DNA of 43,143 nt from a virus (IMGVR_UViG_3300038315_001592:1-43143); one strand, 5' to 3'; shown: positions 874-41,081, counted from the stretch's first letter. The notes: generated by a model not told the origin, from the letters alone. Numbers and translations are program-made.

Positions 874-2344
874 TCTATTCTACGGTGATCGAGGTCCGAC
901 TCAGAAGCAGAGTATCTTCCGAGACTCCACTGAAAAATTCAAGCTCTTCGGGGGAGGTCTAGGCGGAGGAAAGAGCTGGGCTTTGTGCGCTGAGGGGATT
1001 AGGCTCAGCGCTATGTATCCTGGTAACCGAGGATTCATGCTGAGGGCTGAAACTAAATCCTTTAAGACTACGACCCTAGAGACTCTGCTTAAACTCTTAG
1101 AACAGATTTCCATGATGATGGGAAAGAAAATCTACTCTCATAATAAAAGTGAACAGAAAGTTTTCCTCTTTGATCGAAGCGTAATCATCTACGGAGGACT
1201 CAATGACCGAGAAGACAAAATTGGAGTTAAATCCCTCGAAATAGGTTGGTTTGCGGTGGACGAAGCTAATGAATGTTCTAAGGATGCAATCGAACATCTC
1301 GAAGGGAGGCTCCGATGGACTCTCCCAGATGGAAGCAGACCCAGGTATTTCGGGATGTACGCTAGCAATCCTGAGCCTTGTTTTATCAAGGATCTCTTCG
1401 TGACGCCTCAGTACGAGAATCGGAAATCTCCTCGAAGAATTTTCGTGCAAGCTCTGGTGCAGCACAATCGGGATGCACTAACGGGAGCTTCCAATCTACC
1501 AGAGGGATACCGAGAAGACCTAATGGACGGAAAAGCTGAATGGTGGATAAAACGTTACATAGAGGGCAGCTGGGATGCAGCTAAGGGACTCATTCTAGAT
1601 CAGTTTAATCCCCTTGTGAATGTGATTCCTAATCCAAGTTGTCCAATTGAATTACCGCTTCTAGTTGAGGGCTTAGCTGAAAAGTATCCCCTAGTAATCG
1701 GAGGAATGGATCATGGAATAGCAGATCCGACTTGTTTCCTAGGAAGTTTCACTGATTACGAGGGGAATTTGTTCATTTATGACGAATATTATAGCCCAGG
1801 TATGATCTCTGAACATTCTAAGGCTATCTTGAGACAATTCTATGATCAGGGATTCACTAATAAAGTAGCCGATCCGAGTATCTGGTCTAAGACTGGCGAA
1901 CGGAAAGGCCAGCCTTGGAGTGTTCACGATGAGTATGGGCTTCATGGGCTGGATCTCATGAGAGCTAACAATGATTTCGCTTTGAGTATTGATCGCCTAA
2001 ACGCTGGATTTTTCTTTGATAATTCTCATGAGCACCCGTTGACTAATAAAATGGGCAGCCCTAGGACGTTCATATCAGCTAGATGTAAGAATCTAATCAG
2101 AGAAATAGGAGGATACGTCTGGGGAAAAGGTCTAGGTGAAGAAAAGGAGAAACCTAAACGGACTTGCCCTAAGCATGCTATAGACGCAGCTAGATACATT
2201 CACAATGAACTAGAAGAATGTAATCTAGAAACGGAGAATTCTATTCCAGAAGAGTCAGTAATCGGAATCAGAAACGAAATAATCTTCTCGAGAAAATTAA
2301 CCTCAGCGAGGGAATTAGACTATGAGCGAAGTTTCTATCAGTGA
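863..2344 (+). CDS. terL: Terminase large subunit
   Basis: Walker A GGLGGGKS, Walker B FAVDEA, ASNP coupling motif, nuclease motifs GMDHG...DPT and HAIDAARY. Confidence 0.95.
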   Translation: METDLFYGDRGPTQKQSIFRDSTEKFKLFGGGLGGGKSWALCAEGIRLSAMYPGNRGFMLRAETKSFKTTTLETLLKLLEQISMMMGKKIYSHNKSEQKVFLFDRSVIIYGGLNDREDKIGVKSLEIGWFAVDEANECSKDAIEHLEGRLRWTLPDGSRPRYFGMYASNPEPCFIKDLFVTPQYENRKSPRRIFVQALVQHNRDALTGASNLPEGYREDLMDGKAEWWIKRYIEGSWDAAKGLILDQFNPLVNVIPNPSCPIELPLLVEGLAEKYPLVIGGMDHGIADPTCFLGSFTDYEGNLFIYDEYYSPGMISEHSKAILRQFYDQGFTNKVADPSIWSKTGERKGQPWSVHDEYGLHGLDLMRANNDFALSIDRLNAGFFFDNSHEHPLTNKMGSPRTFISARCKNLIREIGGYVWGKGLGEEKEKPKRTCPKHAIDAARYIHNELEECNLETENSIPEESVIGIRNEIIFSRKLTSARELDYERSFYQ

Positions 2345-4202
2345 TAGCAGCCAGAATCCTATTGAAAAGTGGAATGAGAAGATCAAGGAAGCTAGTAAAC
2401 TCGGGAATCACAAGAAGCTAGCTGAATTCCACGCTGCTTATAGAAATGAAGAAGCCAAGAAAAAATACGAGAATCTGATTTTCACAAATACCCTAGAAGC
2501 TGTAGTCAATACTAACTTCAAAGTTCCTAGTGTTACAGTCAGCGTGAGTTCATTTGACAAATCTAAGGAAATCCTAGGGCTATTCAGAAACGCAGCCAGG
2601 AATAAAATCCTAATAGAGCAATACCTAGAATCTAATGAATTCAAGCTGGAGGTCTCAAAGTGCATAGTGGATTCCAAGATCGGCGACTGGGGTCTCATGG
2701 AAATCAAGAGAGATAGAAGTAAGAATTCTAGACTAGGATTTAAGTTGGCTAGAATCAGTCAATTTGATCTAGTAATTGATCCTGATTGCACTAAGCATGA
2801 CTTCTCTGACGCTCGTTGGATAGCTAAGCAATTCGTAAAACATAAGGATGTCCTTGCTAAGAAAGACTTCCTCAAGAATAACAAGAATCTCGAGGGGAAC
2901 TACAATCCTAAAATAGACGACCCTGAGTTCATCAAGAGAAAACTAGTCGAACCGTTGCAGAGTCATCAAAGAAGCCATTTTGCTGATCTAGTCCGAGGTT
3001 GGATTCTTTGGGACAGGGACAAAAAAGAAAAGCTAGTCCTAGTAGACTCCAAGAAAGAAGCTCTCTTCAAAGGAGACTGGGACGTTGATCTCATGCCTTT
3101 TCCGATTATTCCTCTGTGGTATTATTTTAATCCAGATAGACCCCGACCTATTAGCCCAGCTGTGAATATTCGAATAATCGAAGATGAAGTCAATGACCTC
3201 AAGCACTTCCAAATGAACCACGCTCGAAAAGTAGCTCGGACTGTCTGGTTCACTAGGAAGGGAATATTCAGTAATCAAACTAAAAGACTCCTCGAAGAAT
3301 CAGATAGAGACACTATCGCAGAAGTAAAAAAGGGAAGCCCTGTTGATTCAGTTGTTCAGCTCAAAGAAAAGGGAGTTGGCTTTGAATACAATCAGGCAAT
3401 TCAAATGGCTAAGAGTGGACTCAGCTCACTAGGTCAGGGATTCACGGATTCTAGAGACTTTACAACTGCAGCAGAACCGAACATAATAGCTAGTAATGCC
3501 CAGAAGATAGCTGCATTTGAAGCTCAGAGAGTAGAAGAGTTCTCTAGTAGAATCCTCACTGAATTCTTGAAGCTCGTCCAGACTAAAGTGAGGGGCTTTG
3601 TTATTCCGTTGAATCAGAACGATTACATAGACGCTCTCAGAAGAAACAGACAAATTCTAGTCTCTCAGCCTATGGACAAAAACGAAGCTCAGTTATTCAT
3701 AGGAGGGAGTATTTCCCTGGAGGCTATAGCAGCTAAGGACGCAGATGGAAAATTTATCATCCAAGAAGGAAAGATGATAGTCTCACTCCCATTTGTAGAA
3801 ATCAATTCTGATCTAATCAAGGGAGACTTTAAAGTTGTTAGCGATAGAGGAAGCATGCAGCTGGAGACTTTAGGACTCACGACTAATTTATACTCACTTT
3901 TCAAAGAAGACCGATTTATTAATCAGGCAGCTCTGAGGAAACTAGTCCTGAGGAGTTTCGAGAATTCTGAAGTAATCGGACTTCAGAGGCCTGAGCAGGA
4001 TGTCCTAGCTGAAGTTGAGCGTAATCGTCAGGAAGAACTAGCAGCTCCAATCAAGGAAGCTCAGCTGAAAACTCAGACTGATCTCAAGAAAACTCAGATG
4101 AAAACTAGCTCAGCTGAGAAAATATCCTCTCAGAAAATCCTTGCTGGATTCATAGGACCTGCAGGAGAAAAGAAAGAATCTTCTAGCGGAAAGGGAAAAT
4201 AA
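2322..4202 (+). CDS. Portal protein
   Basis: 626 aa immediately after TerL; RISQFDLVIDP...DARWIA and TAAE motifs typical of podoviral (P22-like) portals. Confidence 0.85.
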   Translation: MSEVSISDSSQNPIEKWNEKIKEASKLGNHKKLAEFHAAYRNEEAKKKYENLIFTNTLEAVVNTNFKVPSVTVSVSSFDKSKEILGLFRNAARNKILIEQYLESNEFKLEVSKCIVDSKIGDWGLMEIKRDRSKNSRLGFKLARISQFDLVIDPDCTKHDFSDARWIAKQFVKHKDVLAKKDFLKNNKNLEGNYNPKIDDPEFIKRKLVEPLQSHQRSHFADLVRGWILWDRDKKEKLVLVDSKKEALFKGDWDVDLMPFPIIPLWYYFNPDRPRPISPAVNIRIIEDEVNDLKHFQMNHARKVARTVWFTRKGIFSNQTKRLLEESDRDTIAEVKKGSPVDSVVQLKEKGVGFEYNQAIQMAKSGLSSLGQGFTDSRDFTTAAEPNIIASNAQKIAAFEAQRVEEFSSRILTEFLKLVQTKVRGFVIPLNQNDYIDALRRNRQILVSQPMDKNEAQLFIGGSISLEAIAAKDADGKFIIQEGKMIVSLPFVEINSDLIKGDFKVVSDRGSMQLETLGLTTNLYSLFKEDRFINQAALRKLVLRSFENSEVIGLQRPEQDVLAEVERNRQEELAAPIKEAQLKTQTDLKKTQMKTSSAEKISSQKILAGFIGPAGEKKESSSGKGK

Positions 4203-4205
4203 ACT

Positions 4206-4526
4206 ATGCCAGGATTCCAGCCACCTAAGGGAAGTGATAGAACTAAGATGAGAGAATTAGCTGAGGCTCTTATGGGATTGGGTGGGTTTACGTCAAGAGG
4301 TGCTAGATCGTTCAGACTCGGCAGAGACGCTATTATAAATCGTTTAAATACTGGGCAGGGAAGAGATCCTATAGCTAGTGTAGATGTAGGTAAAGAAAAA
4401 CTCAAGAGCATGTTATTGCGGGAAAAACTAGGTAAAAAAGTTATTGAAGAGAATAATCTATCAATAAATGAGTTTGGGGTGGATTTTATATTAGATATGT
4501 TACTTGACCTTAGGAATAGGAATTAA
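4206..4526 (+). CDS. Hypothetical protein
   Basis: ORF packed within the operon. Confidence 0.6.
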   Translation: MPGFQPPKGSDRTKMRELAEALMGLGGFTSRGARSFRLGRDAIINRLNTGQGRDPIASVDVGKEKLKSMLLREKLGKKVIEENNLSINEFGVDFILDMLLDLRNRN

Positions 4527-4528
4527 TT

Positions 4529-4768
4529 ATGCCTCTCTATGATTTTCATTGTGAGAGCTGTGACATAACCGAGGAGATTTTCCTCAAGACTCACAAGGAT
4601 ATGAAGAGCGTTAAATGTGCAACTTGTGGAAAGAAAATGAAAAGTCTGATTAGTCAGACTTCTGAGCCTATCTGTTTTGATTATTTTTGCACAAGTTCCA
4701 TGAAAAGATACACAGGACCTAAACAAAGAGAGCGTGAACTCAGAAAAAAAGGTTATGCTATTCTATGA
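4529..4768 (+). CDS. FmdB-family zinc-ribbon protein
   Basis: MPLYDFHCESC...CATCG...KSLIS signature. Confidence 0.85.
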   Translation: MPLYDFHCESCDITEEIFLKTHKDMKSVKCATCGKKMKSLISQTSEPICFDYFCTSSMKRYTGPKQRERELRKKGYAIL

Positions 4769-5058
4769 GCTGGAAATGCAATGACTGTGGAGCTTGTTGT
4801 GAACTCCTAGGCAATTATGAAGTCTACGAGAAGAGCGTCGAACTCAAGGGATGTGTTTATCATTCTGGAAAGCTCTGCGTGAATTATAATAACAGACCCA
4901 GTGTATGTAGGACTATAAGCCTAAATTATTCAACAGAACAGTTAACTAATATGTGTAGTCTTTTGAAGCATCTGAACAATTGGCACAAGGAAATGCAAGG
5001 ACTACCTAGAGAACGTGAAGCAACCCTCAAGAAAATTCTTCTTGCGGGAATCATTTAA
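4765..5058 (+). CDS. YkgJ/CxxCxxCC cysteine-cluster protein
   Basis: CNDCGACC...C...LCVNYNNRPSVCR. Confidence 0.8.
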   Translation: MSWKCNDCGACCELLGNYEVYEKSVELKGCVYHSGKLCVNYNNRPSVCRTISLNYSTEQLTNMCSLLKHLNNWHKEMQGLPREREATLKKILLAGII

Positions 5059-5073
5059 AGGAGGCTAAACGCC

Positions 5074-5808
5074 ATGAACGGAATGGACGAAGCATTGAGT
5101 GGTGAGTTATCAGCAGAATCAGAAGACGAACAGAAAAACGAAGAAGAGAAGAAAATAGAAACTCCTCCAGTTGACTCTGGAATAGGAGATGCAGCTGCAG
5201 CTAAACTCAACGAAGCGGTCGAAGCTGGAAAATCAGCTAATGAGCTCATCGCTAAATTCGGAGGATCTGAAAAAGCCCAACAAGCTCTAGAGTATCTCCA
5301 AAGCGAAGAATTTAGGACTCTTTATAATAAATCTAAGGAGAATCCAGCTGACTTCCCTGCAGAAGGTGATGAGAGGGCTCAGGCAGTTAAGCTAATCGAG
5401 GATATGATTAGCAAAGCTACCAATCCCCTTCAGAGTCAGATAGCTCAACTAAGCAAAGTCTCTACTGGAAGAATAGGAGAACTAGAGAATACCCTAGCGA
5501 CTACTAATATAACTTCTGCTTTGGAGAGAATAGCCGAGAAGAATCCTGATCTAGCCGATTATCGTGAGGGAATAGTTAAGCACATCAAGGAACTCTTCCC
5601 TAAAGGTAATTTCACAGAAGAGAACGTGAAAAATGTATATCTCCTAGCTAAGATCAAAGCAGGAAAAATTGGAAATGAACCTAATCCAGATGAAAATAAA
5701 GCTAAATTAGAAGATCTAAGCAAGGTAGATCTCCTGAGTATATCCAAGACTTCAAAAGGGAAAGACTTTAGCCAAATAGGCAAGGAAATAATGGATCAAG
5801 TAAGTTAG
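5074..5808 (+). CDS. Putative capsid scaffolding protein
   Basis: Acidic N-terminus, helical, directly upstream of the major capsid gene; AGGAGG RBS. Confidence 0.7.
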   Translation: MNGMDEALSGELSAESEDEQKNEEEKKIETPPVDSGIGDAAAAKLNEAVEAGKSANELIAKFGGSEKAQQALEYLQSEEFRTLYNKSKENPADFPAEGDERAQAVKLIEDMISKATNPLQSQIAQLSKVSTGRIGELENTLATTNITSALERIAEKNPDLADYREGIVKHIKELFPKGNFTEENVKNVYLLAKIKAGKIGNEPNPDENKAKLEDLSKVDLLSISKTSKGKDFSQIGKEIMDQVS

Positions 5809-5902
5809 CTAGAAGCAAGAACGGGGCAGTGCTCTCTAAATGAGAAAATCATTAGAATTCAATTAAACTAAACTATTAATCATTCAAAGGAAAGGAGCAA
5901 TC

Positions 5903-6910
5903 ATGCCTCCGAGAAGTGAAACTAGAGACATAACGAGTATTCTTACAGCAGTTAGTGCGGTTAATCGTCCAGAACTCCACGATAATATTTTCGCAGCTAC
6001 TACAGGGCTCAGCTATCTCAATGGAAAACTAGGTGAGATGGTTCGTAAAGCTAAGAAAATTAAGAAAACTGAAAATGGTGGAACTGATATTACAGTTAGG
6101 CTCATGTATGGTAAGTCTAAGAACACAGGCTCGTACGAAGGACTAGAGCCTCTGACTATCAAACGATCCAATAAACTCACGTCCGCTAAGTACGCCTGGA
6201 AATATTATCACGATGGAGCAGTAATCAGCGGAGCAGACTTCAGGAACAATGGAGGTGGAGGTGACGTAGATAAAATCCTAGATTTAGCTCAAGCGGAAAC
6301 TAAAATAATGGAATTGTCCCTCTCTGAACAGATGAGCTCTAATTTTTATGGAGATGGAACAGGAAACTCCAATAAAAATATGGATGGACTCGAAGCTATG
6401 TTCGTAACTGGAGCTACTAATTATGGAGGTCTCAACGCAACGGCTAATTCTTGGTGGACAGCTACAGCTCAGACTTCTGTGGGTGATTGGGTCAGTTCAG
6501 GTAGGTCAGCGTTGAGAACACAAATTAACAACGCTTCTAAGGGAAGTGATAGACCTGATATTATCCTAACGACTCAGACTATCTACGAGACTCACATGGA
6601 CACGTTAGTTCCTCACATGAGAATCACTAATGAGAAAGCTGAAGGTCTGGGATTCAAGAATCTTCTCTTTGACGGAGAAATTGGAATGTTCTGGGATGCG
6701 GATATTACAGCTGGCGTTCTCTACGCTCTTAATGGACGCTACCTCAGCTGGACTGTTCACAAGGACGCTGATTTCGCAATGACACCTTGGAAGAATAGAC
6801 TGGAAACTGGAGATCAGGATGCTCTCACTCAGCACATAATCGTCCAGGGGAATCTGACGTGTGCTAATAGAAAAAGACAAGTTAAACTTAGCGGAATTAC
6901 AACTACATAG
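5903..6910 (+). CDS. Major capsid protein
   Basis: 335 aa; HK97-like motifs (FYGDGTGN...MDGL, PDIILTT, GFKNLLFDG, GNLTCANR); strong RBS. Confidence 0.9.
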   Translation: MPPRSETRDITSILTAVSAVNRPELHDNIFAATTGLSYLNGKLGEMVRKAKKIKKTENGGTDITVRLMYGKSKNTGSYEGLEPLTIKRSNKLTSAKYAWKYYHDGAVISGADFRNNGGGGDVDKILDLAQAETKIMELSLSEQMSSNFYGDGTGNSNKNMDGLEAMFVTGATNYGGLNATANSWWTATAQTSVGDWVSSGRSALRTQINNASKGSDRPDIILTTQTIYETHMDTLVPHMRITNEKAEGLGFKNLLFDGEIGMFWDADITAGVLYALNGRYLSWTVHKDADFAMTPWKNRLETGDQDALTQHIIVQGNLTCANRKRQVKLSGITTT

Positions 6911-6922
6911 AAAGGAGGAAAG

Positions 6923-7204
6923 ATGGCTTATACTATAACTAATAGAGAAGTGGATATGCTAGGCTCCAAGATGGTCTACTTTGGAGATTTCACGATTACT
7001 AGCTCTCCTCAAGAACTCGTAACAGGCCTCCGATCCGTTAAGCATTGTACAGTTAATACTAACGCCCCAGGAGATGTTAGTATAATTCTTAATTCAAATA
7101 ACGGAACATTGAATTCTAAAATGGGTTCTGTTTGGACTTCAGGACCTAGTCAGTTCCATGGGAGTAGCTCATTCACGGCTACTTTCATGGCAATTGGAAA
7201 TTAA
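6923..7204 (+). CDS. Putative head decoration/cement protein
   Basis: Small beta-rich protein after MCP; AGGAGG RBS. Confidence 0.55.
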   Translation: MAYTITNREVDMLGSKMVYFGDFTITSSPQELVTGLRSVKHCTVNTNAPGDVSIILNSNNGTLNSKMGSVWTSGPSQFHGSSSFTATFMAIGN

Positions 7205-7225
7205 TTAAACTAAAGGAGAAAAATT

Positions 7226-7882
7226 ATGAGTCTAGTAGGAGATTTTCCAAAAACACCAATGGAGATAGCTGACCCCACTAAAGCTAGTGTCTTCTTTGAG
7301 GATTTTATGAATCCTTATAATTCTAGCGACTGGACAGTAACGGAAACAGACGGAGGAGCAACTCAAGCGAGTAATAACGCTAATCATGGAGAGTTACTCA
7401 TTACCAATACAGCCGCAGATGACGACGCTGTTACCATGCAGGTAGCTGCTGAGAATCATCTCTTTGTATCTGGAAAAGAGAGCTGGTTCAAAATCAGGGT
7501 GAAGTCTAGCGATGTAACTCAGAATGATTTCATTTTTGGGCTGGTGATTACCGATACCAGCCCATTTTCTAACACAGATGGAGTTTACTTCTCTAAGACT
7601 GACGGAGTGGCTACTTTGGATTGTTATGTAAACAAGGACAGCTCATCTGACACATCAGCTGCTATTGCTACCCTAGCAGATGACACTTATGTAGAATTGG
7701 CATTCCTTTATGATGGACAGAGTTCAGTTATCTTCTATGTCAATGGAGTCCGTAAAGCTACCTTGGCGACTACGAATCTCCCTGATGATGAAGAGCTCAC
7801 GCCCACAATCTACATGAGGGCTGGAGAAGCAGCCGCTAAAACTATGACCATTGATTATGTTCTAGCAGGACAGGAAAGATAA
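7226..7882 (+). CDS. Putative virion structural protein with concanavalin/jelly-roll-like fold
   Basis: FFEDF start, LAFLYDG...VIFYVNG, MTIDYV motifs; T/D-rich. Confidence 0.6.
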   Translation: MSLVGDFPKTPMEIADPTKASVFFEDFMNPYNSSDWTVTETDGGATQASNNANHGELLITNTAADDDAVTMQVAAENHLFVSGKESWFKIRVKSSDVTQNDFIFGLVITDTSPFSNTDGVYFSKTDGVATLDCYVNKDSSSDTSAAIATLADDTYVELAFLYDGQSSVIFYVNGVRKATLATTNLPDDEELTPTIYMRAGEAAAKTMTIDYVLAGQER

Positions 7883-7891
7883 GTTCACTTG

Positions 7892-7920
7892 GAGAGGGAG
7901 GATAACTCCCTCTCTTTTTT
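7892..7920 (+). terminator. Rho-independent terminator after head genes
   Basis: GAGAGGGAG-gataa-CTCCCTCTC followed by TTTTTT. Confidence 0.85.
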
Positions 7921-7932
7921 GAAGGGAAGAGC

Positions 7933-8652
7933 ATGAAACCATCTTATAAATTATTCTATTTTGTAGAGAAATACTTCCGAGGAGGAAGGCAAGTAGAAGG
8001 ACTCCGAATCAGTAAGCCTAGAGGAAAAACTACTACCATCAAGAGACTCTACAAGGATGGTTCTGAGGGGAGTAAATGGGCGCTGACTACTAGAAACGAC
8101 TATGTAGACTTCATGGCGAATACAATAGGCAGAGACCTCGGTGAGGGTCAGATAGCTGAAAATAAGAAGAGCCGCAAAGACAGAATCTACTTTGTTAAAA
8201 AAAAGATCGCTGAGAACGAGAGTCTACTCGAAAAGAAAAAGAGGGAAGTAGAAGATCTCAACGTTCAGAAAAAAGAAGAATCTCGAATAGCTGACCTCAA
8301 GAGAAAAAGAGAAAAAGCCGAAAGAATACGCAAACAGATAGAATCAGATAGACTCAAAGCAGCTAAACTAGCCGCAGAAATAAAAGCTCTAGAAGAAGAA
8401 CAAAAACTCCTCGAAGAACGAAAAGCAGAGGAGTTAGCTCGTAAGAAAAAAGAAGAAGAGGAAACTAAAGCTCGCCTAATAATCAACGAAGAAAAGAAAA
8501 GGAAGAAAAAAGCAGCTCCACGGATAGTAACCATAGGCGGGGGAATGTTCGGACCTAGGAGAGTTCTAATGTCAGCGAGTGGAGCTATCATCATGGAACT
8601 GGATTCATCGACTAGAAGAATGGTCGGTAGAGGTGGAAGTCAAGGAATATAA
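7933..8652 (+). CDS. Hypothetical K/E-rich coiled-coil protein
   Basis: Long charged heptad region. Confidence 0.7.
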   Translation: MKPSYKLFYFVEKYFRGGRQVEGLRISKPRGKTTTIKRLYKDGSEGSKWALTTRNDYVDFMANTIGRDLGEGQIAENKKSRKDRIYFVKKKIAENESLLEKKKREVEDLNVQKKEESRIADLKRKREKAERIRKQIESDRLKAAKLAAEIKALEEEQKLLEERKAEELARKKKEEEETKARLIINEEKKRKKKAAPRIVTIGGGMFGPRRVLMSASGAIIMELDSSTRRMVGRGGSQGI

Positions 8653-8671
8653 GGGGTATGCTATTGAAGGG

Positions 8672-8702
8672 TGTACATATTATCATCATGATAAAGTATA
8701 CA
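8672..8702 (+). promoter_or_regulatory. 31-bp palindromic motif copy 1
   Basis: TGTACA-tattatcatcatgataaag-TATACA, just upstream of the AAGGAG RBS of 8718. Confidence 0.75.
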
Positions 8703-8717
8703 TAAAAAGGAGAATAA

Positions 8718-9083: not shown

Positions 9084-9095
9084 GAGGTGGACTAG

Positions 9096-10031: not shown

Positions 10032-10045
10032 AAGAGGGAGATATA

Positions 10046-12309: not shown

Positions 12310-12321
12310 GGAGGTAAATTA

Positions 12322-29865: not shown

Positions 29866-29879
29866 TCAGCTCCTTGTTG

Positions 29880-29910: not shown

Positions 29911-29939
29911 TAGCTTGTAGCTATGCTTAGTTGATTGAC

Positions 29940-31253: not shown

Positions 31254-31338
31254 TTATTCTCCTTTAGTCTGGCAGAACTTCTTCGCCATTTTTATATTCT
31301 CCATGTATTATAAATTTCATGTCTTATCCTTTTAGTCA

Positions 31339-31520: not shown

Positions 31521-31536
31521 CTTACGCTTAGTTCCT

Positions 31537-31917: not shown

Positions 31918-31996
31918 AGTGATTCTTCTCCTTTCTAGAGAATAGAATTAAATTAAATTAAATTAGATAATACTACTAGCTTACTTCACCTCCCTT

Positions 31997-33585: not shown

Positions 33586-34300
33586 TTATTAGATTAGCGT
33601 ATTTGCTAGATTCTATTATCTTAGAATAGCTTGGGTCTAGGATTTCATTCTTATGTTCTGGGAGTATGATGAGACTCTTAGCGGAGAAGATTTCATCGCC
33701 TATGGATTTCAGTTTGAATACTCCCTTCCCATTTAGTGAATCATTAAACATCATCCAGTTTTCTTGGAAGAGTCCCCCTATTTGCTGAGCTAGCTTTCCG
33801 GTTACTAAGGGGAGAGCACGCCATTTTCCAGTGACCTCGTTTTTGTCTATGTTAATGTGACAAGTGAGGACGACATTCTTGCCTGTTCTCTTGAGTCTCA
33901 TGATTGTCTGCTTGATGTAGCTCATTTGAGTGAGATAATCATGCTGATTAGGGACTTTCCCGTAACTCTTACTTCTAATTTGAATATTAGTCATGAGCAT
34001 ATGAGAGAATGTGCTCAGAGAGTCTAGGACTATAGTCTTACACCAAGGGTCTCTAGATGCTATCTCCATTCCCGCTTCGTATTCTTGCATGAAGAGAGCT
34101 TCTGAGATGTCGCAGAGTCTAATGCTCTTAGCATGGCTGTCGGCTACCCCTTGGAGGTTGTCGTCACAGTCCAAGAAAATCGGGGCAGGGAAGGTGCTTC
34201 CTAGGGTAGTTTTTCCGCTGCCCGATTCTCCTTGAACTAGGGCGACTATGCGGAAATCTTCCTTTAAGTCTGATTTTAGGGATTTAATTTCTAGGGTCAT
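33548..34300 (-). CDS. Sak4-like AAA_24 ATPase (single-strand annealing recombinase)
   Basis: GESGSGKTT, FLDCD, TIVLDSLS, NVVLTCH. Confidence 0.85.
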   Translation of the reverse strand: MTLEIKSLKSDLKEDFRIVALVQGESGSGKTTLGSTFPAPIFLDCDDNLQGVADSHAKSIRLCDISEALFMQEYEAGMEIASRDPWCKTIVLDSLSTFSHMLMTNIQIRSKSYGKVPNQHDYLTQMSYIKQTIMRLKRTGKNVVLTCHINIDKNEVTGKWRALPLVTGKLAQQIGGLFQENWMMFNDSLNGKGVFKLKSIGDEIFSAKSLIILPEHKNEILDPSYSKIIESSKYANLIIDVGETPLQKGK

Positions 34301-34539
34301 GAATTCTTTTCCTTTCTAGGGAATAACATTGGAACAGAGTCTCCAGCTGAGTTGACTCCGTAGATTTGATCTAGTAGTTCCTGGATTTCTACTTTTCCGT
34401 AGTGAGTATAGGTAATAGCTCCGTCTATTTTGGAATATTTCTTAGCTCTTTTTTCTTTGTCGGAGTAATCTCCAGTGAACTCTTCTAGTTGAGAATACGC
34501 CAACTGAACTGCTTCAGATCTAGATAATCTAGCTTGCAT
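34297..34539 (-). CDS. Hypothetical protein
   Basis: GGAGG RBS. Confidence 0.55.
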   Translation of the reverse strand: MQARLSRSEAVQLAYSQLEEFTGDYSDKEKRAKKYSKIDGAITYTHYGKVEIQELLDQIYGVNSAGDSVPMLFPRKEKNS

Positions 34540-34867
34540 TATATGATTTCACCTCCTTCCTCCCTTCCTCCGAGAGTCGGAGTAATCTCCAGTGAACTCT
34601 TCTAGCTACTCTAGCTGACCTGACTTCTTCGTAGAGATTAAGCAGATCTGTGAAAGCGTAGGACATCTTGGAGAGTTTAAAATTTAGACTATTCCTAGCT
34701 TCAGGATCCATTTTCATTGAGCTAAGTTCCCCCTTGAGACCTCCCATTAGAGCCCTAGCTCCTAGGATTCTTCGGAGGAGATCATTCTCCTTGAGAGCTT
34801 CGAGTTGAGCTGGAGTCCTAGGCGAGGAATTTCCTTTTCTTTTTCTTTTTTTAATGGTTTTTTTCAT
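34529..34867 (-). CDS. Hypothetical protein
   Basis: Overlapping start/stop in operon. Confidence 0.55.
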   Translation of the reverse strand: MKKTIKKRKRKGNSSPRTPAQLEALKENDLLRRILGARALMGGLKGELSSMKMDPEARNSLNFKLSKMSYAFTDLLNLYEEVRSARVARRVHWRLLRLSEEGRKEVKSYNAS

Positions 34868-35738
34868 TTAGATTAGATTCTCCTTTCTCAGGGTTCCAGG
34901 TGCGGAGTTCATAATCGTGAGTTAGATCAATTTCTTCGTGGATTCGTCTGTAGTCCACGCCCAATTCACACAAGAACAAAAACGGACAACTTCCATAATC
35001 CTTGCAGCTGTTCGTGTCTTTTGGGAAGTAATCTTGATTTATACAAGACTCTAGGACTCCCAGAAAATGAGTTAGATCTCTATTCCAGTCTTCGATGATT
35101 TCATCTGTAATAGAAACTGGTTCGTATTGAATGCTAATAGTCTCGTATTGGTCTTCCTTAGCTCTACCTTTTCGGAAATACAAGAAGTCAAAAGCTGCTC
35201 TGTTGACTTGTCTTCCAGTTGATCTGATCAGAGCTGCGTATCCTACTATTTGAGCGTTGGGATTAGTGCAGATTCTGCCTTTTACGCTAGAACTCTTGAT
35301 ATCTACTGGCATGGCTGCTTCAGAATTATCTGAGTCGACTATCACTCGATCTACTTTTCCGTAGTATTTCCAAGTTGAGATCCCAGAGTCTACTTCCATC
35401 GAATAACTAGCTTCAGTGGAGATGATATTCTCAGCCACTGGGATTCCATTTTGATCTACGTATTTCTTGAGAATTAGAATTCCCTTGACCATTGTGCGTA
35501 GGCTTTTCGGGCAGAGTCCCTCGAATTTATTCCAATGAGAAATAAATCCTTGGTTCATCTGCTGAGTGCTTCTAGTTTTGTAGAGCTGCTCCAATCCTAC
35601 GTGGATGCCTATTCCGAATTCAGCGGCTAGCCTATTCTCTATTCCTTTTGGGCTTAGCTGCTTTATTTGATTCCAGTAGAACTTTCTTGGGCAGTCTTTG
35701 AACTGGCTGTACATTGTGTGGTCTATTGACTTTTTCAG
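34851..35738 (-). CDS. PD-(D/E)XK exonuclease (AddB/Cas4-like, Fe-S staple); probable CTG start
   Basis: CPRKF, G...H, YGKVDR, VDIKS, QIVGY, C.....CPF...C. Confidence 0.85.
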   Translation of the reverse strand: MKKSIDHTMYSQFKDCPRKFYWNQIKQLSPKGIENRLAAEFGIGIHVGLEQLYKTRSTQQMNQGFISHWNKFEGLCPKSLRTMVKGILILKKYVDQNGIPVAENIISTEASYSMEVDSGISTWKYYGKVDRVIVDSDNSEAAMPVDIKSSSVKGRICTNPNAQIVGYAALIRSTGRQVNRAAFDFLYFRKGRAKEDQYETISIQYEPVSITDEIIEDWNRDLTHFLGVLESCINQDYFPKDTNSCKDYGSCPFLFLCELGVDYRRIHEEIDLTHDYELRTWNPEKGESNLNEKNH

Positions 35739-35970
35739 CTGAGTTCACCTCCCTTCCTTTTAGGATTATTAGAATATCCAACAATAACAATGAATCCACT
35801 GAGTGTGAGTAGATTTCTCCTCCGTCTGGGAAGGTGATCTGAATTCTCCCATGAGAATTGGACTTGACCTTCGAGGATTCTACTGATCTGAGTGGGATTT
35901 CTTCACTACACTTAGGGCAGATTCGTCCATCAGCAGGAAATTCGAATCCGCAGAATCGACAGACTTTCAT
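35632..35970 (-). CDS. Double zinc-ribbon protein
   Basis: CRFCG...CPKC. Confidence 0.65.
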   Translation of the reverse strand: MKVCRFCGFEFPADGRICPKCSEEIPLRSVESSKVKSNSHGRIQITFPDGGEIYSHSVDSLLLLDILIILKGREVNSAEKVNRPHNVQPVQRLPKKVLLESNKAAKPKRNRE

Positions 35971-36179
35971 AGGCTGATCTCCCCTCCTTTAAAAAGTTCA
36001 TCTGACGGAATCCCCAGGATTTCAGATAATTTCTGTTTTTCATTTTCAGTGGGAGAAAAGAGTCCCGTTGACAATCTACTGAGTCTTGTTTCGTTGATGT
36101 TAGTTCTTAGGGCTATCCTGTACATTGGCTCTGGTGCGTCTACTAGAGCCAATTTTAATCTGGTTATTATCTTTTTCAA
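35967..36179 (-). CDS. XRE-type HTH transcriptional regulator
   Basis: YRIA..TNINETRLSRLSTG...P...KLSEILGI...ELF. Confidence 0.85.
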   Translation of the reverse strand: MKKIITRLKLALVDAPEPMYRIALRTNINETRLSRLSTGLFSPTENEKQKLSEILGIPSDELFKGGEISL

Positions 36180-36221
36180 ATTAGCTTACCTTCCTTTCTG
36201 AATGAGCTGATTTCTTTAAAA

Positions 36222-36358
36222 GGGAGAGTCCTATTAGAGGTAGTTATTCATGAGTCACTCACAGCTGGGGTAACAGAACTATGAACAACTATTAACTGAA
36301 AAACTTTCCCTCTGGCAGAAGTACGAGCTGAGCTCCTTCTTCTACTAAGGACTCTCCC
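36222..36358 (-). ncRNA. Candidate structured RNA / processing element
   Basis: Closing stem GGGAGAGTCCT/AGGACTCTCCC, inner stem TAGTTGTTCAT/ATGAATAACTA, followed by TTTT on the minus strand. Confidence 0.5.
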
Positions 36359-36372
36359 AAAAGTTTAGAACA

Positions 36373-36690
36373 CTAGCTTGGGCTGTAGCCAGTACTCTTA
36401 GTCGCCATTGCCTCGGCTTGTTCTCTAGAAATTCCACCAGCTTCCATTACTCCTACCATTTTCTCGAATAGCTGCTGAGCCTTGGTGGATTTGCCCGAGC
36501 CTCTGAGCTGAGCCTTGTATCGCCTGCTTAGAGTTTCATTAATGGCAGCTAGTACAGAGCTCTCGTCTCCCAAGAGACTTTCTGCTTCGGAGTAATCCTC
36601 AGGATAATTGAAAACTCCCTCGAATTCCTTTTTGGATTCTCCACTTCCAGATGATGCTTTTTCAGTTACTTCACGCATAGAATGATTCAC
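36373..36690 (-). CDS. Hypothetical protein
   Basis: AGGAGG RBS (start likely 36678). Confidence 0.65.
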   Translation of the reverse strand: MNHSMREVTEKASSGSGESKKEFEGVFNYPEDYSEAESLLGDESSVLAAINETLSRRYKAQLRGSGKSTKAQQLFEKMVGVMEAGGISREQAEAMATKSTGYSPS

Positions 36691-36723
36691 CTCCTTTCTT
36701 TTTTAGAATTGTGCTACTAGCTT

Positions 36724-36978
36724 TTAGCTTTCTGCTAGTGTCTCGGATCTCTCTATGAAACTGAATTCTCCAGTGAATCTGTGGACACTTCGGATGTCTA
36801 GTTTTTCGAAAGGAATGTATTCTACTTTTCCGCTGATAGGATCTCTAGTTTTGATGACTAGTTGGCTTCTAAGGAGACTATTGTGAATCCAGTAGATTCC
36901 TTCTATTTTGAGTTCGTCTAGTTCATCTGAGCTTCTAAGGAATGCCTTTTCTATGATCGTCCATTTGTCTATTTTCAT
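36724..36978 (-). CDS. Hypothetical protein
   Basis: RBS, operon. Confidence 0.55.
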   Translation of the reverse strand: MKIDKWTIIEKAFLRSSDELDELKIEGIYWIHNSLLRSQLVIKTRDPISGKVEYIPFEKLDIRSVHRFTGEFSFIERSETLAES

Positions 36979-36987
36979 AAGATTCTC

Positions 36988-37185
36988 CTAGCTATTATCC
37001 CTCATATAGTCTGATATAATTTCATAAATCTTTTCTGCTATAGCTGCCTCTTCTGTGCTAGCTCCTGCATGTCTATAGGTCCTCCACCAATGAACTCCTA
37101 GTATGTTTTTTAGAGCCATCATCTCTGTATCCTCTAGAGTTAATTTGTATTCATATTTCTGTATTTCAATTCTTTCTATTTTCAT
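36988..37185 (-). CDS. Hypothetical protein
   Basis: AGGAGG RBS. Confidence 0.6.
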   Translation of the reverse strand: MKIERIEIQKYEYKLTLEDTEMMALKNILGVHWWRTYRHAGASTEEAAIAEKIYEIISDYMRDNS

Positions 37186-37203
37186 CTAGCTAACCTCCTT
37201 TTC

Positions 37204-37473
37204 TTATTCAAAAGTTTGGAATGTCGGGTATTCTTCATCAGGACCCATTCCTCTGATGATTTCATTGCATCTGTCACAGATTCTATTGTGAATTCCTTTA
37301 GAGGTAAATTCCCCCTCACAGCGGAGACAGAGTCTGCTTTCTATTTTTCGAGGAGGGATTCCAGCTGACTTCCTGGCTACTTCTATGTGACAATCTTCAC
37401 AGATTCCGTCTAAGTAAGTCATGATACTTTTAGTTTTATTACAATTTCTACAGATCATTTGAGAAGTGTTCAT
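37204..37473 (-). CDS. Multi-CxxC zinc-finger protein
   Basis: Four CxxC pairs; CLRC...F.S.G.HNRIC..C. Confidence 0.7.
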   Translation of the reverse strand: MNTSQMICRNCNKTKSIMTYLDGICEDCHIEVARKSAGIPPRKIESRLCLRCEGEFTSKGIHNRICDRCNEIIRGMGPDEEYPTFQTFE

Positions 37474-37488
37474 TTTTTCTCCTTTTGA

Positions 37489-37728
37489 TTAGATTATTCC
37501 ATCTAGCTCTACTATTCTACGCATCTCCTCTGGACTAAGTTTACAGAAAGCTTCTATTCGCTGCTCTAGACTAGGTCCTTTTTTCTTTTTTCTAGGAGAG
37601 GATTTCTTAGCTGACCTAGCCAACTTTTCAGCGATAATCCTATAGGCTTCAATGTGATTACCTTTGATGACCTTCTCTAAGGGGATTTTACTCTGGAGTC
37701 GAGGCATTGTAAAATTTCTCCTTGTCAA
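37489..37728 (-). CDS. Basic hypothetical protein (likely ATG start MPRLQ)
   Basis: AAGGAG upstream of internal ATG. Confidence 0.55.
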   Translation of the reverse strand: MTRRNFTMPRLQSKIPLEKVIKGNHIEAYRIIAEKLARSAKKSSPRKKKKGPSLEQRIEAFCKLSPEEMRRIVELDGII

Positions 37729-37855
37729 AGAGGGGATTATGATGAGCTAACTCCTCTATGAATAACTCCACTAGTTCAAAGTGAGCTTCTTGGTTTAAGA
37801 ATTCAGCTGATTTTTTGAGGAGATCAGCTACCACTTCTAGTTCTCTTTTGTGCAT
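37688..37855 (-). CDS. 55-aa protein with NPxFD..KF motif, not in ORF track
   Basis: MHKRELEVVADLL...LAHHNPLFDKEKFYNA; AAGGAG RBS. Confidence 0.6.
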   Translation of the reverse strand: MHKRELEVVADLLKKSAEFLNQEAHFELVELFIEELAHHNPLFDKEKFYNASTPE

Positions 37856-37859
37856 AATT

Positions 37860-38210
37860 CTATTCTCCTTTCTTTTCTTTTTTTAGTCTTATATTCTTGA
37901 GCTTACTTGGGAAAATGTAGACCTCTTTAGGAGCCGGCAGAGTCTTCAGGCTTGCCATGCAATGTCTAGTGGCTTCAGATTCTAGGATGGATTCTATCTG
38001 AGCTATTAGATCATAAATTTCTGGTGGAGCTTTGAATTTATTGTCATCATTCCAAGAGTCGGTGTCTATTGAAAAACTAGCTATCTGCTTTCCATTAGCT
38101 GTAGTGAGATCAATCGTAGCTCCTATTTCTGGGAGTAATTTACCAATTTTGTAACTCACTCGGAAACTACACAACTTTGCATCTGTGATTTCTATTTGTA
38201 TTTTTTTCAT
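37860..38210 (-). CDS. Hypothetical protein
   Basis: AGGAG RBS. Confidence 0.6.
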   Translation of the reverse strand: MKKIQIEITDAKLCSFRVSYKIGKLLPEIGATIDLTTANGKQIASFSIDTDSWNDDNKFKAPPEIYDLIAQIESILESEATRHCMASLKTLPAPKEVYIFPSKLKNIRLKKEKKGE

Positions 38211-38224
38211 GAGATTATCTTCTC

Positions 38225-38518
38225 CTATTCTGGAAAATGTTTATTCATTAGAGTTTTAACTTTTACTAGAACTCTATTTATTTCTTTCATGCTCACGCTT
38301 GGATCTATTGTACCTGGAGCAAATGAAAGAGCAGTGAACAATGAACTTTCTTTATCTGTTATTAGATTCATTTCGCATTTTAATATCATCATTTTAATGA
38401 ATGGACTTGACCTCTCTGAGTCGTTCATTTTCTCAGCCATCTTTTTTTGGTGCGTGTTCATAGCTATTCTCCTCTCTTCAATTGATGGAAAATCCCCCCG
38501 AGTCTCGAAGGAATTCAA
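38225..38518 (-). CDS. Hypothetical protein (likely start MNTHQ)
   Basis: GAGGAG RBS before internal ATG. Confidence 0.5.
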   Translation of the reverse strand: MNSFETRGDFPSIEERRIAMNTHQKKMAEKMNDSERSSPFIKMMILKCEMNLITDKESSLFTALSFAPGTIDPSVSMKEINRVLVKVKTLMNKHFPE

Positions 38519-38933
38519 TGAACTCAGCTACTACCTCCTCATGGAAAGAGTACCAAGTACTAAATGGTCTTCTTCTGCCTTTTCCAGAACATCCATTACA
38601 TTCACCTTGGACTATTGCGTCAGATCTAATTCCCTTTCCTCCGCAGATTACGCAGACTTCATCTGGGAGGGCTCTGAGTCTTCTTTCTTCGTTGAGTCTG
38701 TGATTAGCTACATGCTTGGAATCTAGGAGATTCTGTAATTCCTCAGCTAGATGGGCTGCTTGGGCTGAATTCATTCCCATTCCATCATTGTAATGTCCTC
38801 CTTCAGCTAGCTTCTGGCTTATGCTACAATTCTCGCAACAGTAATTCCACAATGGTCTCCAGTACCAAACATTAGCTCGGAAGTATTCTCCTTTAGGACT
38901 AGTGGGCTTATTTCCGTAGATATCCATTCCCAT
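38478..38933 (-). CDS. Conserved phage protein with DnaJ-type CxxCxGxG zinc finger
   Basis: MGMDIYG...YFRANVWYWRPLW; CVICGGKG...CNGCSGKG; FLRDSGGF. Confidence 0.75.
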   Translation of the reverse strand: MGMDIYGNKPTSPKGEYFRANVWYWRPLWNYCCENCSISQKLAEGGHYNDGMGMNSAQAAHLAEELQNLLDSKHVANHRLNEERRLRALPDEVCVICGGKGIRSDAIVQGECNGCSGKGRRRPFSTWYSFHEEVVAEFIEFLRDSGGFSIN

Positions 38934-38954
38934 TTTATTCTCCTTTGTAAAAAA

Positions 38955-39230
38955 TTAAATATCACCTTCAAAACCAATAGCTATATCACCGACAATTTCT
39001 TCTGCCTTATCAGCGTATTTTTTATTCACTAAAACAATAGTCTTCCCTTTAGACTTTATTCTAAAATGAGCTACTGGTGAAAACACAAAATCAATATCAT
39101 TCTTTTTAAAAATAGTCGCTAAAGGAGTTCGTAAATCCACCAATTTTTTCCCACTACTTTTAACAAGATCAGCAATCTGCTGTATTTCCCCCTCATTTAA
39201 TTGATCTAACAACTCCTGTGCTTTACTCAT
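38955..39230 (-). CDS. Hypothetical protein, AT-rich import
   Basis: AAGGAG RBS; codon usage differs from neighbours. Confidence 0.7.
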   Translation of the reverse strand: MSKAQELLDQLNEGEIQQIADLVKSSGKKLVDLRTPLATIFKKNDIDFVFSPVAHFRIKSKGKTIVLVNKKYADKAEEIVGDIAIGFEGDI

Positions 39231-39326
39231 TTATTCTCCTTTCTGATTAAATCACGTTAATCAAAAGGACATTCACTCTACCCCGCCTGAATGTCCTTCT
39301 TTTCTGAGATGAGCCTACTCTCATTC

Positions 39327-39455
39327 CTATTCCCAACAAGCACAACTTGGATGCTGAGAACCCCTTAGTTCTCCACAAACTGGACAATTGGATTCAGCTA
39401 ATCCAACTGAACTAATCACCAGGAATTCGTCTACTTCTATGAATTCTAGTTCCAT
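39327..39455 (-). CDS. 42-aa zinc-finger peptide, not in ORF track
   Basis: AGGAGGTG RBS; CPVC...H..CAC. Confidence 0.6.
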   Translation of the reverse strand: MELEFIEVDEFLVISSVGLAESNCPVCGELRGSQHPSCACWE

Positions 39456-39475
39456 TCTATTCACCTCCTTTCTTG

Positions 39476-39506
39476 TGTATAGTTTATGATCGTTGTAAAT
39501 TGTACA
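39476..39506 (-). promoter_or_regulatory. 31-bp palindromic motif copy 4
   Basis: Minus strand TGTACA-atttacaacgatcataaac-TATACA, just upstream of the RBS of 39455. Confidence 0.7.
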
Positions 39507-39656
39507 TTATTTATGCTCTATTTTTTTTATTAAAAATAGTAGTGTTTTTATGCTTAGTTTGTGTAGATCAGATACTATTCTCGTGTCGCCTTTTATGTTT
39601 AAGTTATGTGCTAAATTGTAAATCAAACAGTCTTTTTTAGACAGAATATTAATCAT
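39507..39656 (-). CDS. 49-aa hypothetical protein, not in ORF track
   Basis: AAGGAG RBS; MINILSKKDC... Confidence 0.45.
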   Translation of the reverse strand: MINILSKKDCLIYNLAHNLNIKGDTRIVSDLHKLSIKTLLFLIKKIEHK

Positions 39657-39719
39657 GAGATTCTCTCCTTTCTGAGGAGTTTATCAGACTACCCCGAATG
39701 ATAAACTCCCCTTTTCTAG

Positions 39720-39774
39720 GTTAGCTCCTTTTTTATCGTAATGTAATGCGATTAAAGATTCTAAGATTTTCATT
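39720..39774. repeat. 55-bp direct repeat of 40113-40167 (2 mismatches)
   Basis: Direct comparison; both copies encode MKILESLI(A/T)LHYD(K/E)KGAN on the minus strand. Confidence 0.9.
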
Positions 39775-39786
39775 TTTTCCTTTCTT

Positions 39787-39987
39787 TTAGTCTTTTGAAT
39801 TGTTTTGGTATGCTTTTAATTCTCGCATTAGTTCTTGAAACGCTTTTTTGTGTATTTCTATGATTTCGCCCGAGTTGGGTTCATCGATAGCCCATTCGTC
39901 TATTACTTTTTGTTGATCGTGGAATACCTCGTAATTTGTTATTAACCTGCGAGCGTATATTTTCATGGATTTTTCACCTCCTTTCAA
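39787..39987 (-). CDS. Hypothetical protein (likely start MKIYA)
   Basis: AGGAGGTG RBS. Confidence 0.6.
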   Translation of the reverse strand: MKGGEKSMKIYARRLITNYEVFHDQQKVIDEWAIDEPNSGEIIEIHKKAFQELMRELKAYQNNSKD

Positions 39988-40166
39988 TGAGAGTTTTGTT
40001 CGATGAATTCTAGAACTTTTTTTGTTTCAATTTGGTGTTCTATTCCGTCTTTTTCAATGTGAAATATGTCATCAGAGATGCTTATCCAGCAAGTCTTGTG
40101 GACATTTTCATCGTTAGCTCCTTTTTCATCGTAATGTAATGTGATTAAAGATTCTAAGATTTTCAT
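39984..40166 (-). CDS. Hypothetical protein
   Basis: AAGGAG RBS. Confidence 0.55.
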   Translation of the reverse strand: MKILESLITLHYDEKGANDENVHKTCWISISDDIFHIEKDGIEHQIETKKVLEFIEQNSH

Positions 40167-40172
40167 TGATTT

Positions 40173-40394
40173 TTATCTCCTTGCTTTTAGATTTTCATCT
40201 GCTTTTAGGCAGAAGAGTTCATCAATTTGTTGAATTCCACTTTTACGGGTTTTTAAGATTTCTAGGATTTCGTAATCAAAGTTAGTTCCACGAGATCTTA
40301 AGACTGCAATGTTTATTTTGGTGTGTTTCCATGTGTCATCTGACATTTCGTGTGGTTTATCGTTGATTAGTTCTTGAAGTTCGCCAATTGTCAT
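40173..40394 (-). CDS. Hypothetical protein
   Basis: AGGAGGTG RBS; MTIGELQELI start. Confidence 0.65.
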   Translation of the reverse strand: MTIGELQELINDKPHEMSDDTWKHTKINIAVLRSRGTNFDYEILEILKTRKSGIQQIDELFCLKADENLKARR

Positions 40395-40563
40395 AGTTGA
40401 ATCACCTCCTTTCAGTTGGGGATTTAGGTGTTGAATTGTGTATGTTAGGGGTGTATTACCCCATGTTATGGGTTATTCTTCTCTTTTTTCCTGTAGAAGT
40501 GTAAATGTGTATGTGTTTGAATTTGTTGAAGTTATCTTTTTGGGCTGTAGGGGCTGAAAAACT

Positions 40564-40775
40564 TAACTTCAATGAATTCAATTGTTTATCGGGAATTCTT
40601 CTACTTTCTACGGGGTGGGCACATAGTGCCTCTTTCTACCGCTTTCGTACGGGTCTTAGCTCGTTCTTATAAAAAAAAAAATAAACTCAGATAAACCCCC
40701 CTAGTAAAGTGGGAATCCGTCCACCCCCCAAAAAGTAGAAGAATTTCTTGTAAGTTGTTGAATTCATTACGTTAT
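40564..40775. repeat. ~55-bp imperfect inverted repeat around an A-tract
   Basis: AATGAATTCAA..AATTCTTCTACTTT..GGGGTGG matches the reverse complement at 40719-40775 with identical spacing. Confidence 0.8.
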
Positions 40776-41081
40776 TGATTTTATTTTGCTACGTTCGGAA
40801 AAGTTAAGTATTTGTTTTCGTTACGTTTACGTTAATTGACTTCTACAACAAAATGCAGGAATTGTATCCCTCGGATTCAATCTTTGTATGTATTTTTAAG
40901 TATACATAGTTTATTCTTGTGATTTTTACGTTAAATTGAATTTGAAGGTTTTATGTACGTTTATGATTTTTCATACACTCTAGATTAATTGGAAAAATAC
41001 TTTCATAACGTATGTATTTTGAATGCCAATTACAAAACCTTGCCATTGGATTAATAAAGTTATAAAAGTTAAAAATACATA

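Follow-up and report, generated by a model that had tools for sequence, protein, structure and literature searches.

Why should a phage genome accumulate one short word along most of its length and keep about one kilobase almost free of it? The question is raised by IMGVR_UViG_3300038315_001592, one virus record of 43,143 bp (the window, that is, the whole stretch of DNA analyzed here), which is present in marine metagenome runs and matches a TARA contig at 100%. The word is BAG, B being C, G or T. It is enriched 1.49 times on both strands, synonymous and non-coding sites included, and purged from a single block of about 0.95 kb. The genome encodes a ParB-fused methyltransferase (MTase) that could mark BAG, and related phages have the same geometry with other words. 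The pattern is certain and is repeated in a cultured phage.

A word gained in the bulk and purged from one block

The initial annotation had described an enrichment of CTAG and AGCT over 2341-40980. We recounted its figures and they are exact: nine CTAG in 2341-2760 (1.4 are expected from base composition, 3.4 from the genome's own rate) and none in 40984-42211, with 7 AG plus CT dinucleotides in 41101-41220 and 20 in 21001-21120. Over the whole genome the odds ratio was 1.39 for AG/CT, the top value among the window and 165 compared loci, and 1.32 for GA/TC, with CTAG at 2.21 and AGCT at 2.96 times expectation. The bias survived an amino-acid control in which protein sequences and base composition were kept (AG 1.31 times, z 27; CT 1.51 times, z 30) in both gene arms, and fourfold sites carry it at codon positions 2-3 and 3-1, again in both arms. 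A synonymous-codon model gave log-odds per BAG of +1.04 and +1.01 in the two arms, with AAG at +0.5 to +0.7. An artefact of amino acids or codon position is ruled out by the protein-keeping null together with this model. Neither CTAG nor AGCT is itself the target, since their second-order Markov ratios (1.03 and 1.01) indicate by-products of trinucleotides. The enrichment first described is real, but its unit is BAG; it is strand-symmetric in both arms, as had been proposed, and wider than thought, 1-2340 and 42,000-43,143 being enriched too. The "very short AG-containing target" suggested at that time is sharpened to BAG, as far as composition can indicate a target. BAG adenines amount to 5,442 of the 25,645 adenines of the genome (21%). 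The GA/TC enrichment is partly independent of BAG. A deamination of the CpG type is unsupported, as CC is not depleted and TG/CA is not raised.

The purge is as marked as the gain. Within 40,984-41,960 there were 13 BAG sites versus 67 expected (CAG 3 against 15.6, GAG 4 against 15.6, TAG 6 against 36), AAG stood at 42 against 36, and almost all the remaining AG is preceded by A. Shuffles that preserve dinucleotides held 32.7 +/- 3.6 BAG, with a minimum of 20 among 2,000. The poorest 900-bp window contained 10 BAG, the median being 117 and the minimum elsewhere 75. When degenerate four-position motifs were scanned without bias across every 800-bp window, BAG at 41,001 came out best, with a log-likelihood ratio (LLR) of 117 and a runner-up at 36. 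The right edge of the block is sharp (41,830-41,970 by change point) and the left one fades (Table 1). It had been said that the bias stops at the early control region; a site-poor region is indeed found there, but it is actively depleted, trinucleotide-specific and includes a coding gene. In this gene, the first of the early arm, codons avoid BAG on both strands (log-odds -2.14 +/- 0.45, with AAG at +0.27 +/- 0.33, in the synonymous-codon model): none of its 7 glutamines is CAG and none of its 14 leucines is CTA, CTC or CTG. The gene is conserved, with one homologue at 64%; it matched no Pfam family, and the Atlas gave a lead that was sub-threshold only. A mere non-coding effect is ruled out because other intergenic stretches are BAG-enriched, except 22382-22566. 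This region, where the arms converge, is likewise BAG-poor (7 versus 13.9 expected).

Table 1. Features of the window discussed in the text (counts are observed/expected).
Feature	Coordinates	Strand	Remarks
BAG-enriched bulk	1..38900	both	Coding and most non-coding DNA; CAG 1.49, GAG 1.82, TAG 1.39, AAG 1.15
BAG gradient	38950..40990		From ~1.3 down to ~0.4 of expectation over ~2 kb; small early genes; 300-bp profile, per-block counts, per-gene ratios
BAG-purged block	40991..41931		CAG 2/14.6, GAG 3/14.6, TAG 6/34.5, AAG 42/34.5; putative terminal repeat and first-entering end
Late side of sharp edge	41949..43143		BAG-enriched; in 41949-42889 CAG 34/24.2, GAG 42/24.2, TAG 37/33.2
Inverted repeats in block	41017..41604		26-nt arms 41017-41042 and 41518-41543 flank the 151-aa gene; 30-nt hairpin 41543-41604
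First early gene, 151 aa	41082..41537	-	Within the block
Sigma-70-like early promoters	41701..41861	-	Promoter-like matches 13 versus 14.2 in shuffles, overall not above shuffle
Fur-box-like element	41800..41824		Overlaps early promoter-like sites; 1 mismatch to the consensus as we take it; 0.06 matches expected
Late arm	up to 22381	+	Probable terS 42302, terL 863, portal, capsid, tail, lysis, internal proteins
Early/replication arm	41537 down to 22567	-	Arms diverge at 41.5-42.3 kb
Probable small terminase (terS)	42302..42751	+	Late-arm start; family in 45/74 genomes; putative function
terL	863..2344		Late arm; terS lies upstream on the circular map
DUF3987 protein	22567..23733	-	Group marker; labelled "DNA primase" in PHROGs, without a match to a primase catalytic domain
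Dam-like MTase	23987..24427	-	AG ratio 1.20 (z 1.9), GA 0.92; no tblastn match in 42 relatives
Family A DNA polymerase fused to uracil-DNA glycosylase (UDG), PolA	25104..27482	-	Group marker; would be the agent in the mutational and priming alternatives
ParB-fused beta-class amino-MTase (DPPF)	28624..29865	-	Candidate BAG writer; Pfam N6_N4_Mtase, PHROG ParB-like

The block, just upstream of the probable terS, is a candidate terminal repeat. In run X3, a possible source run of the window DNA, contig depth was 273-384 over 40,991-41,895, against 100-143 before and 109 after; the corresponding values before, within and after the block were ~20, 46-71 and 30 in X4 and 6.8, 11.4 and 6.2 in X5, X7 being too shallow for the comparison. 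These depths come from contigs and not from raw reads, and as contig depth is not copy number they are a hint only. Contigs stop at 41,931 (X5, X7) and resume at 41,947-41,949 (X5, X3). In the related phage Kuura, a 606-bp direct terminal repeat mapped by PhageTerm is described at the equivalent place and contains the first early gene (PMC9959647). The raised contig depth and the mapped ends of this relative suggest that the purged block probably represents the direct terminal repeat, and because the early promoters point inward we infer that its end enters the cell first. Through the Fur-box-like element, early expression may respond to host iron. Variants of length exist in the population, contigs skipping 154 and 163 bases or repeating 178 (39511-39666, 39986-40163, 42896-43060), and a 90-nt direct repeat is found at 39712 and 40105.

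Other words with the same geometry in related phages

Podophages of 40-50 kb with convergent arms and a module of PolA, DUF3987 protein, Sak4-like annealer and PD-(D/E)XK nuclease form a wide group, of which the window is a member. The other named members, at 25-31% protein identity, are the PaP2/PaMx41-like podophages (Jamesmcgillvirus), Kuura, Tiera, the cultured Vibrio phage VS-ABTNL-3 and Desulfofustis phage LS06-2018-MD01; PaMx41, Kuura and Tiera differ in having neither ParB-MTase nor block. Deposited phages gave no nucleotide match to positions 1-25,000, and scans of viral contigs with single proteins found no close relatives. The relatives at 64-75% are known as proteins only, and five metagenome contigs that carry closer MTases could not be extended. 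The host search returned distant and mixed genome matches, with no host identified, and variants were too few for a mutation spectrum.

We have compared 73 other genomes: 42 from IMG/VR found via PolA or MTase (42 of 48 candidate records, six bacterial assemblies being excluded), 21 via DUF3987 (21 of 34 records) and 10 from GenBank. Among them 54 carry the ParB-MTase, 15 do not and 4 are unclear. Many records are linear contigs that possibly lack the repeat, and longer targets are invisible to the scan. The clearest case is VS-ABTNL-3, in which CAG is absent from either strand for 1,103 bp (0 versus 20.8 expected) although its mean spacing is 29 and the next unrelated gap is 190; the gap lies at the record's right end and spans a coding gene. 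The MTase homologue of this phage is at 28578-29954. In G032 the word is HAC (14 against 64 expected), with the same sharp and then fading shape. Blocks were also found of MAG in MW202489 (11/43), KAG in G031 (7/37) and the Desulfofustis phage (16/42), VAG in G067 (23/62) and GAR in G029 (13/42). The sharp blocks adjoin the start of the late arm, and A is the base common to the words. The 5' bases included in the word were the more enriched genome-wide in 8 of 11 relatives (p 0.016, partly built into the scan). Among the 45 carriers that could be anchored, 22 had their best block between -0.7 and +3 kb from the late-arm start, against ~8% by chance, as had 2 of 12 non-carriers (p 0.043); part of this excess could be a general effect of control regions. 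As the automatic junction finder misplaced several genomes, the window included, these position results come from other scans. Related MTases go with related words, CAG of VS-ABTNL-3 with MAG of MW202489 and VAG of G004 with BAG of G018.

Recurrence at this place bears on the idea that the phage copies a host signature and that the block is unadapted DNA of a recent foreign cassette. This is scarcely probable. Recent-looking genes (Dam-like, tail fibres, a 437-aa open reading frame, ORF) are indeed less biased, and the block is AT-rich with inverted repeats. However, imported DNA would be expected near a ratio of 1 and not at 0.1-0.2 with AAG spared, none of the other 165 loci had an AG ratio below 0.69, the block gene has its 64% homologue, and distant relatives, with other words and hosts, have their blocks at this position too.

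Several further observations were made in the same genomes. G072 (L561) and G079 (L563) have a degenerate catalytic motif in the MTase (DLTG, DVTL) and no strong junction block. In G051 (end of L566, start of L565) the 2 kb upstream of terS, very AT-rich and interrupted by a contig break, hold 5 CAG versus 22.4 expected. Control-region gaps that do not fit XAG were found in G035 (L402, 5195-6282, GCA 1 versus 17.5), G022 (~25.2-26.7 kb, YCC/RGR) and G060 (~2.9-3.4 kb, GAA/RAR). G032 has, next to its capsid gene, two glycosyltransferases, and also a GARS-like gene of purine synthesis (L395 11692-14010, L394 14390-15640). In the window, PolA has Leu at what we take to be position 762 of the E. 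coli enzyme, occupied by His in all 12 other aligned rows, and its UDG domain is without the cysteines that we presume canonical. A second ParB-like gene (31997-32731, minus strand) and a DUF932 gene (32731-33585, minus strand) were both unmatched in 42 relatives.

Candidate causes of the gain and the purge

The candidate writer has the features of a beta-class enzyme, with DPPF at residues 214-217 preceding DPFAGSG at 372-378, Pfam PF01555 above the cut-off and a Rossmann fold, and its N-terminal ParB domain is indicated by PHROG 12047 and by Spo0J/Noc/ParB matches at 4-160. The best matches for its two halves are CcrM, M1.HpyAVI and M.RsrI and the Spo0J/Noc/ParB domain. CcrM is the best solved relative by sequence and fold (model pLDDT 83); the window enzyme differs in fusing both halves in one chain and in a shorter segment before motif X. 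The gene is fully bias-adapted (z 11.9). Of the two MTases that the initial annotation proposed as agents only this one is plausible, as the Dam-like gene is only partly adapted and is unmatched in 42 relatives; we rejected it as the cause, and it is probably a recent arrival.

The reading that we favor, at a probability of about one half, is that the pattern reflects dense N6-methyladenine (m6A) at BAG, serving as armour against restriction, with the first-entering repeat kept unmarked. The ParB-fused MTase would place m6A on the A of BAG, a target suggested by composition; the marked DNA would resist host restriction enzymes, which would produce a weak selection for BAG gain in the bulk, and words that cannot be protected (adenine-free palindromes; AAGCTT) would be lost. 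The terminal repeat would correspond to the block with the early promoters and the first gene. Marks there would be costly, as host proteins would handle this DNA before any phage protein exists. The cost would rather come from a host nuclease that depends on methylation, and that an early product blocks later, than from an impaired host RNA polymerase, because the purge affects coding sequence, on both strands, and tapers off into the early arm. The cost of marks at the genome end is the least supported step. In a variant, the repeat would be copied too late for marking and a phage nuclease would cut unmarked BAG. In favor of armour by m6A stands the fact that the degenerate word favoured by the bulk is the one that the block has lost, AAG being spared both times. 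The strongest avoidance affects the adenine-free palindromes CGCG, GCGC, CCGG and GGCC (ratios 0.05-0.32), and AAGCTT has 2 sites versus 12-27 expected. In the whole window there are 1, 6, 8 and 12 sites of the four palindromes, and TCGA, GTAC and TATA are avoided too. The avoided four-base words suggest host four-base cutters. Extended to the group, one could tentatively propose a retunable trinucleotide adenine MTase with a target that genome sequence alone reveals (BAG, CAG, HAC, MAG, KAG), with armour everywhere and a kilobase landing pad left bare, which would imply a methyl-sensing host defence and an early inhibitor, possibly the product of the 151-aa gene.

A different mark on BAG, either m4C (N4-methylcytosine) at the C in CTV or some bulkier adduct made by an unrecognised enzyme and possibly built on m6A, seems improbable to us. 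An N4-cytosine enzyme stands, with N6-adenine ones, among the top sequence and fold matches of the MTase, and some DPPF enzymes are specific for m4C. A bulky mark would explain a purge within coding DNA better than m6A, and genes without assigned role are present, such as the 437-aa ORF at 29940-31253 beside the MTase. On the other hand, A alone is common to the XAG and XAC words, no gene beyond the ParB-MTase, PolA and DUF3987 is common to the eight sharp cases, and the 437-aa gene is less bias-adapted and absent from 42 relatives. Its protein (minus strand) belongs to an unnamed family found across bacteria and phages. Base-hypermodification genes (DpdA, PurZ, hydroxymethylases) were absent among the 44 window proteins, the larger ones, that were scanned with Pfam and PHROGs.

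The purged block tracks the ParB-MTase, weakly. This gene, PolA and DUF3987 are the only families present in all eight sharp cases, and there is no purge in PaMx41, Tiera, EBPR3 and Kuura, relatives that have PolA and DUF3987 and lack the MTase. At an LLR of at least 35, 13 of 54 carriers and 0 of 15 non-carriers have a block (p 0.029, post hoc). Several results weigh against the armour interpretation. The strong block is missing in 41 of the 54 carriers. Lowering the threshold to at least 30 gives 18/54 versus 3/15 (p 0.25), p is 0.21 in a rank test, the data had already been seen when motif class and threshold were picked, and the genomes are not independent. In a replication under a pre-set criterion, a block was found in 1 of 17 new carriers and in 0 of 4 others; three genomes narrowly missed it (ratios 0.43-0.49). 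When the gaps of single trinucleotides are ranked, VS-ABTNL-3 and the window come first among 77 genomes, but no link with the MTase appears (7/54 versus 2/18, p 0.60). T7, without such an enzyme, has a 922-bp stretch free of GCA/TGC from 39588 (L613) to ~570 across its ends. The MTase of G053 nearly equals that of G031, yet its KAG dip is weak (0.53-0.78), and the catalytic motifs of VS-ABTNL-3, the Desulfofustis phage and G031 are non-canonical (DPIY, DFPY, DPQY). It speaks for the armour that hexamer palindromes containing BAG are not avoided (1.05) and the others are (0.81), but this effect ranks only 5th among 74 genomes. Being a mild mark, m6A would need a strong cost to explain a near-total purge inside a gene. 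Finally, the words match DnaG priming sites, and the genome-wide enrichment of AG does not track the ParB-MTase. It was asked from the beginning whether relatives lacking the MTases share the bias, and in part they do: the median AG ratio was 1.12 with ParB-MTase (n 36) and 1.16 without (n 12; p 0.84).

This last result invites two separate causes, a polymerase or repair bias that enriches AG and GA across the group, and a first-entering end from which the target of a host defence is kept away as long as the first gene product is not yet at work, following the first-step logic of T5. AG is raised throughout regardless of the MTase, and GA/TC is enriched beyond BAG. The DNA of the first step of T5 is described as the part exposed to EcoRI and CRISPR (bioRxiv 10.1101/866236), and the GCA-free ends of T7 agree with such avoidance. 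We consider this quite unlikely, because separate causes would not predict that the enriched and purged sets are equally degenerate in the window, G032, MW202489 and G031; in addition, GCA is not genome-enriched in T7 (1134/1207) and the T7 ends are repeat-rich.

The main alternative, though unlikely, is that the words are sites of primase initiation, a reading that the initial annotation had missed. BAG reads 5'-CTV-3' on the other strand, the template form for DnaG-type enzymes; it would be gained as the phage borrows a primase and purged so that the repeat ends stay single-stranded for joining and concatemers, in line with the model of single-stranded ends from T7 work. For the DnaG of gamma-proteobacteria, CTG is reported as preferred and CTA as second, with primers mostly starting pppAG, GTC as the T7 primase site and a cryptic third base that varies (PMC2978363). 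The Vibrio phage block follows this order (CAG 0.00, TAG 0.22, GAG 0.49, AAG 1.86), as do the block ratios of the window (CAG 0.00, TAG 0.12, GAG 0.26). Of the 18 blocks with an LLR of at least 30, 14 end in AG and one in AC, and AG is enriched in the whole group, MTase present or not. No primase catalytic domain was matched among the 44 scanned window proteins, though the DUF3987 protein could conceivably hide one. A PolA-type enzyme with de novo priming has been described (PMC7581432). Against priming, relatives with the same replication genes and no MTase are unpurged. In PaMx41, from Pseudomonas aeruginosa, the largest CAG gap measures 190 bp; Tiera and EBPR3 are unpurged too, and the mapped repeat of Kuura has CAG at 0.63 with the genome at 0.69. 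T7 retains its own priming sites in its 160-bp repeat, and the predicted opposite strand offset of the gaps was inconsistent across 15 genomes.

Relation to known systems

Dense anti-restriction methylation has precedents, and so have constrained leading ends. Hia5, Hin1523 and Nma1821 (BA/AB) are phage-borne adenine MTases whose dense marks block many restriction enzymes (PMC3299994), and M.EcoGII is a phage enzyme that methylates any A and blocks restriction (PMC5778455). Hia5-type enzymes are described as sparing A in A-tracts (PMC3299994), as the window spares AAG. They and M.EcoGII belong to Mu-like or cryptic prophages, whereas the window enzyme is fused to ParB, stands beside PolA and has a putative target; the accessible literature on them contains neither genome-wide site gain nor a site-free terminus. 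A-centred di- or trinucleotide targets, action against restriction on entry and a DPPY-type motif are also described for M.CviQII of a chlorovirus (AG) and for the plasmid enzymes M.EcoGIX and M.BceJIII (SAY, PolI-associated) (PMC3299994, PMC7736820). These come from a eukaryotic virus and from plasmids and resemble the window enzyme by description; besides, the SAY enzymes are said to act on single strands and on one strand only, and the signature found here is strand-symmetric. The first-step-transfer repeat of T5 (bioRxiv 10.1101/866236) and the leading end of T7 are likewise constrained first-entering DNA, but the sites avoided there are host targets not enriched elsewhere, while the window purges its favourite word. 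The purged words are complements of the DnaG initiation trinucleotides (CTG, CTA; GTC in T7), with the same variable position (PMC2978363), and a terminal repeat free of priming sites is not seen in T7 or in the MTase-less relatives. The accessible text of PMC8919816 contains no viral trinucleotide motif, and our searches of open-access literature, in which most subscription journals are absent, found no report of the combination, a single word that is enriched and purged in the same genome and that changes from relative to relative.

If dense marking is the explanation, the group would offer a phage genome under positive selection for sites of modification, opposite to the avoidance that restriction sites usually show. 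The specificity of many uncharacterised ParB-fused MTases could then be predicted from sequence, with new three-base DNA-marking tools as a product. If instead the words are priming sites, they would reveal a new design rule for long terminal repeats. The cultured VS-ABTNL-3 makes either reading testable. Under dense marking, the purged end would indicate that m6A has an unknown cost at entry, with the first-expressed genes as a source of candidate inhibitors.

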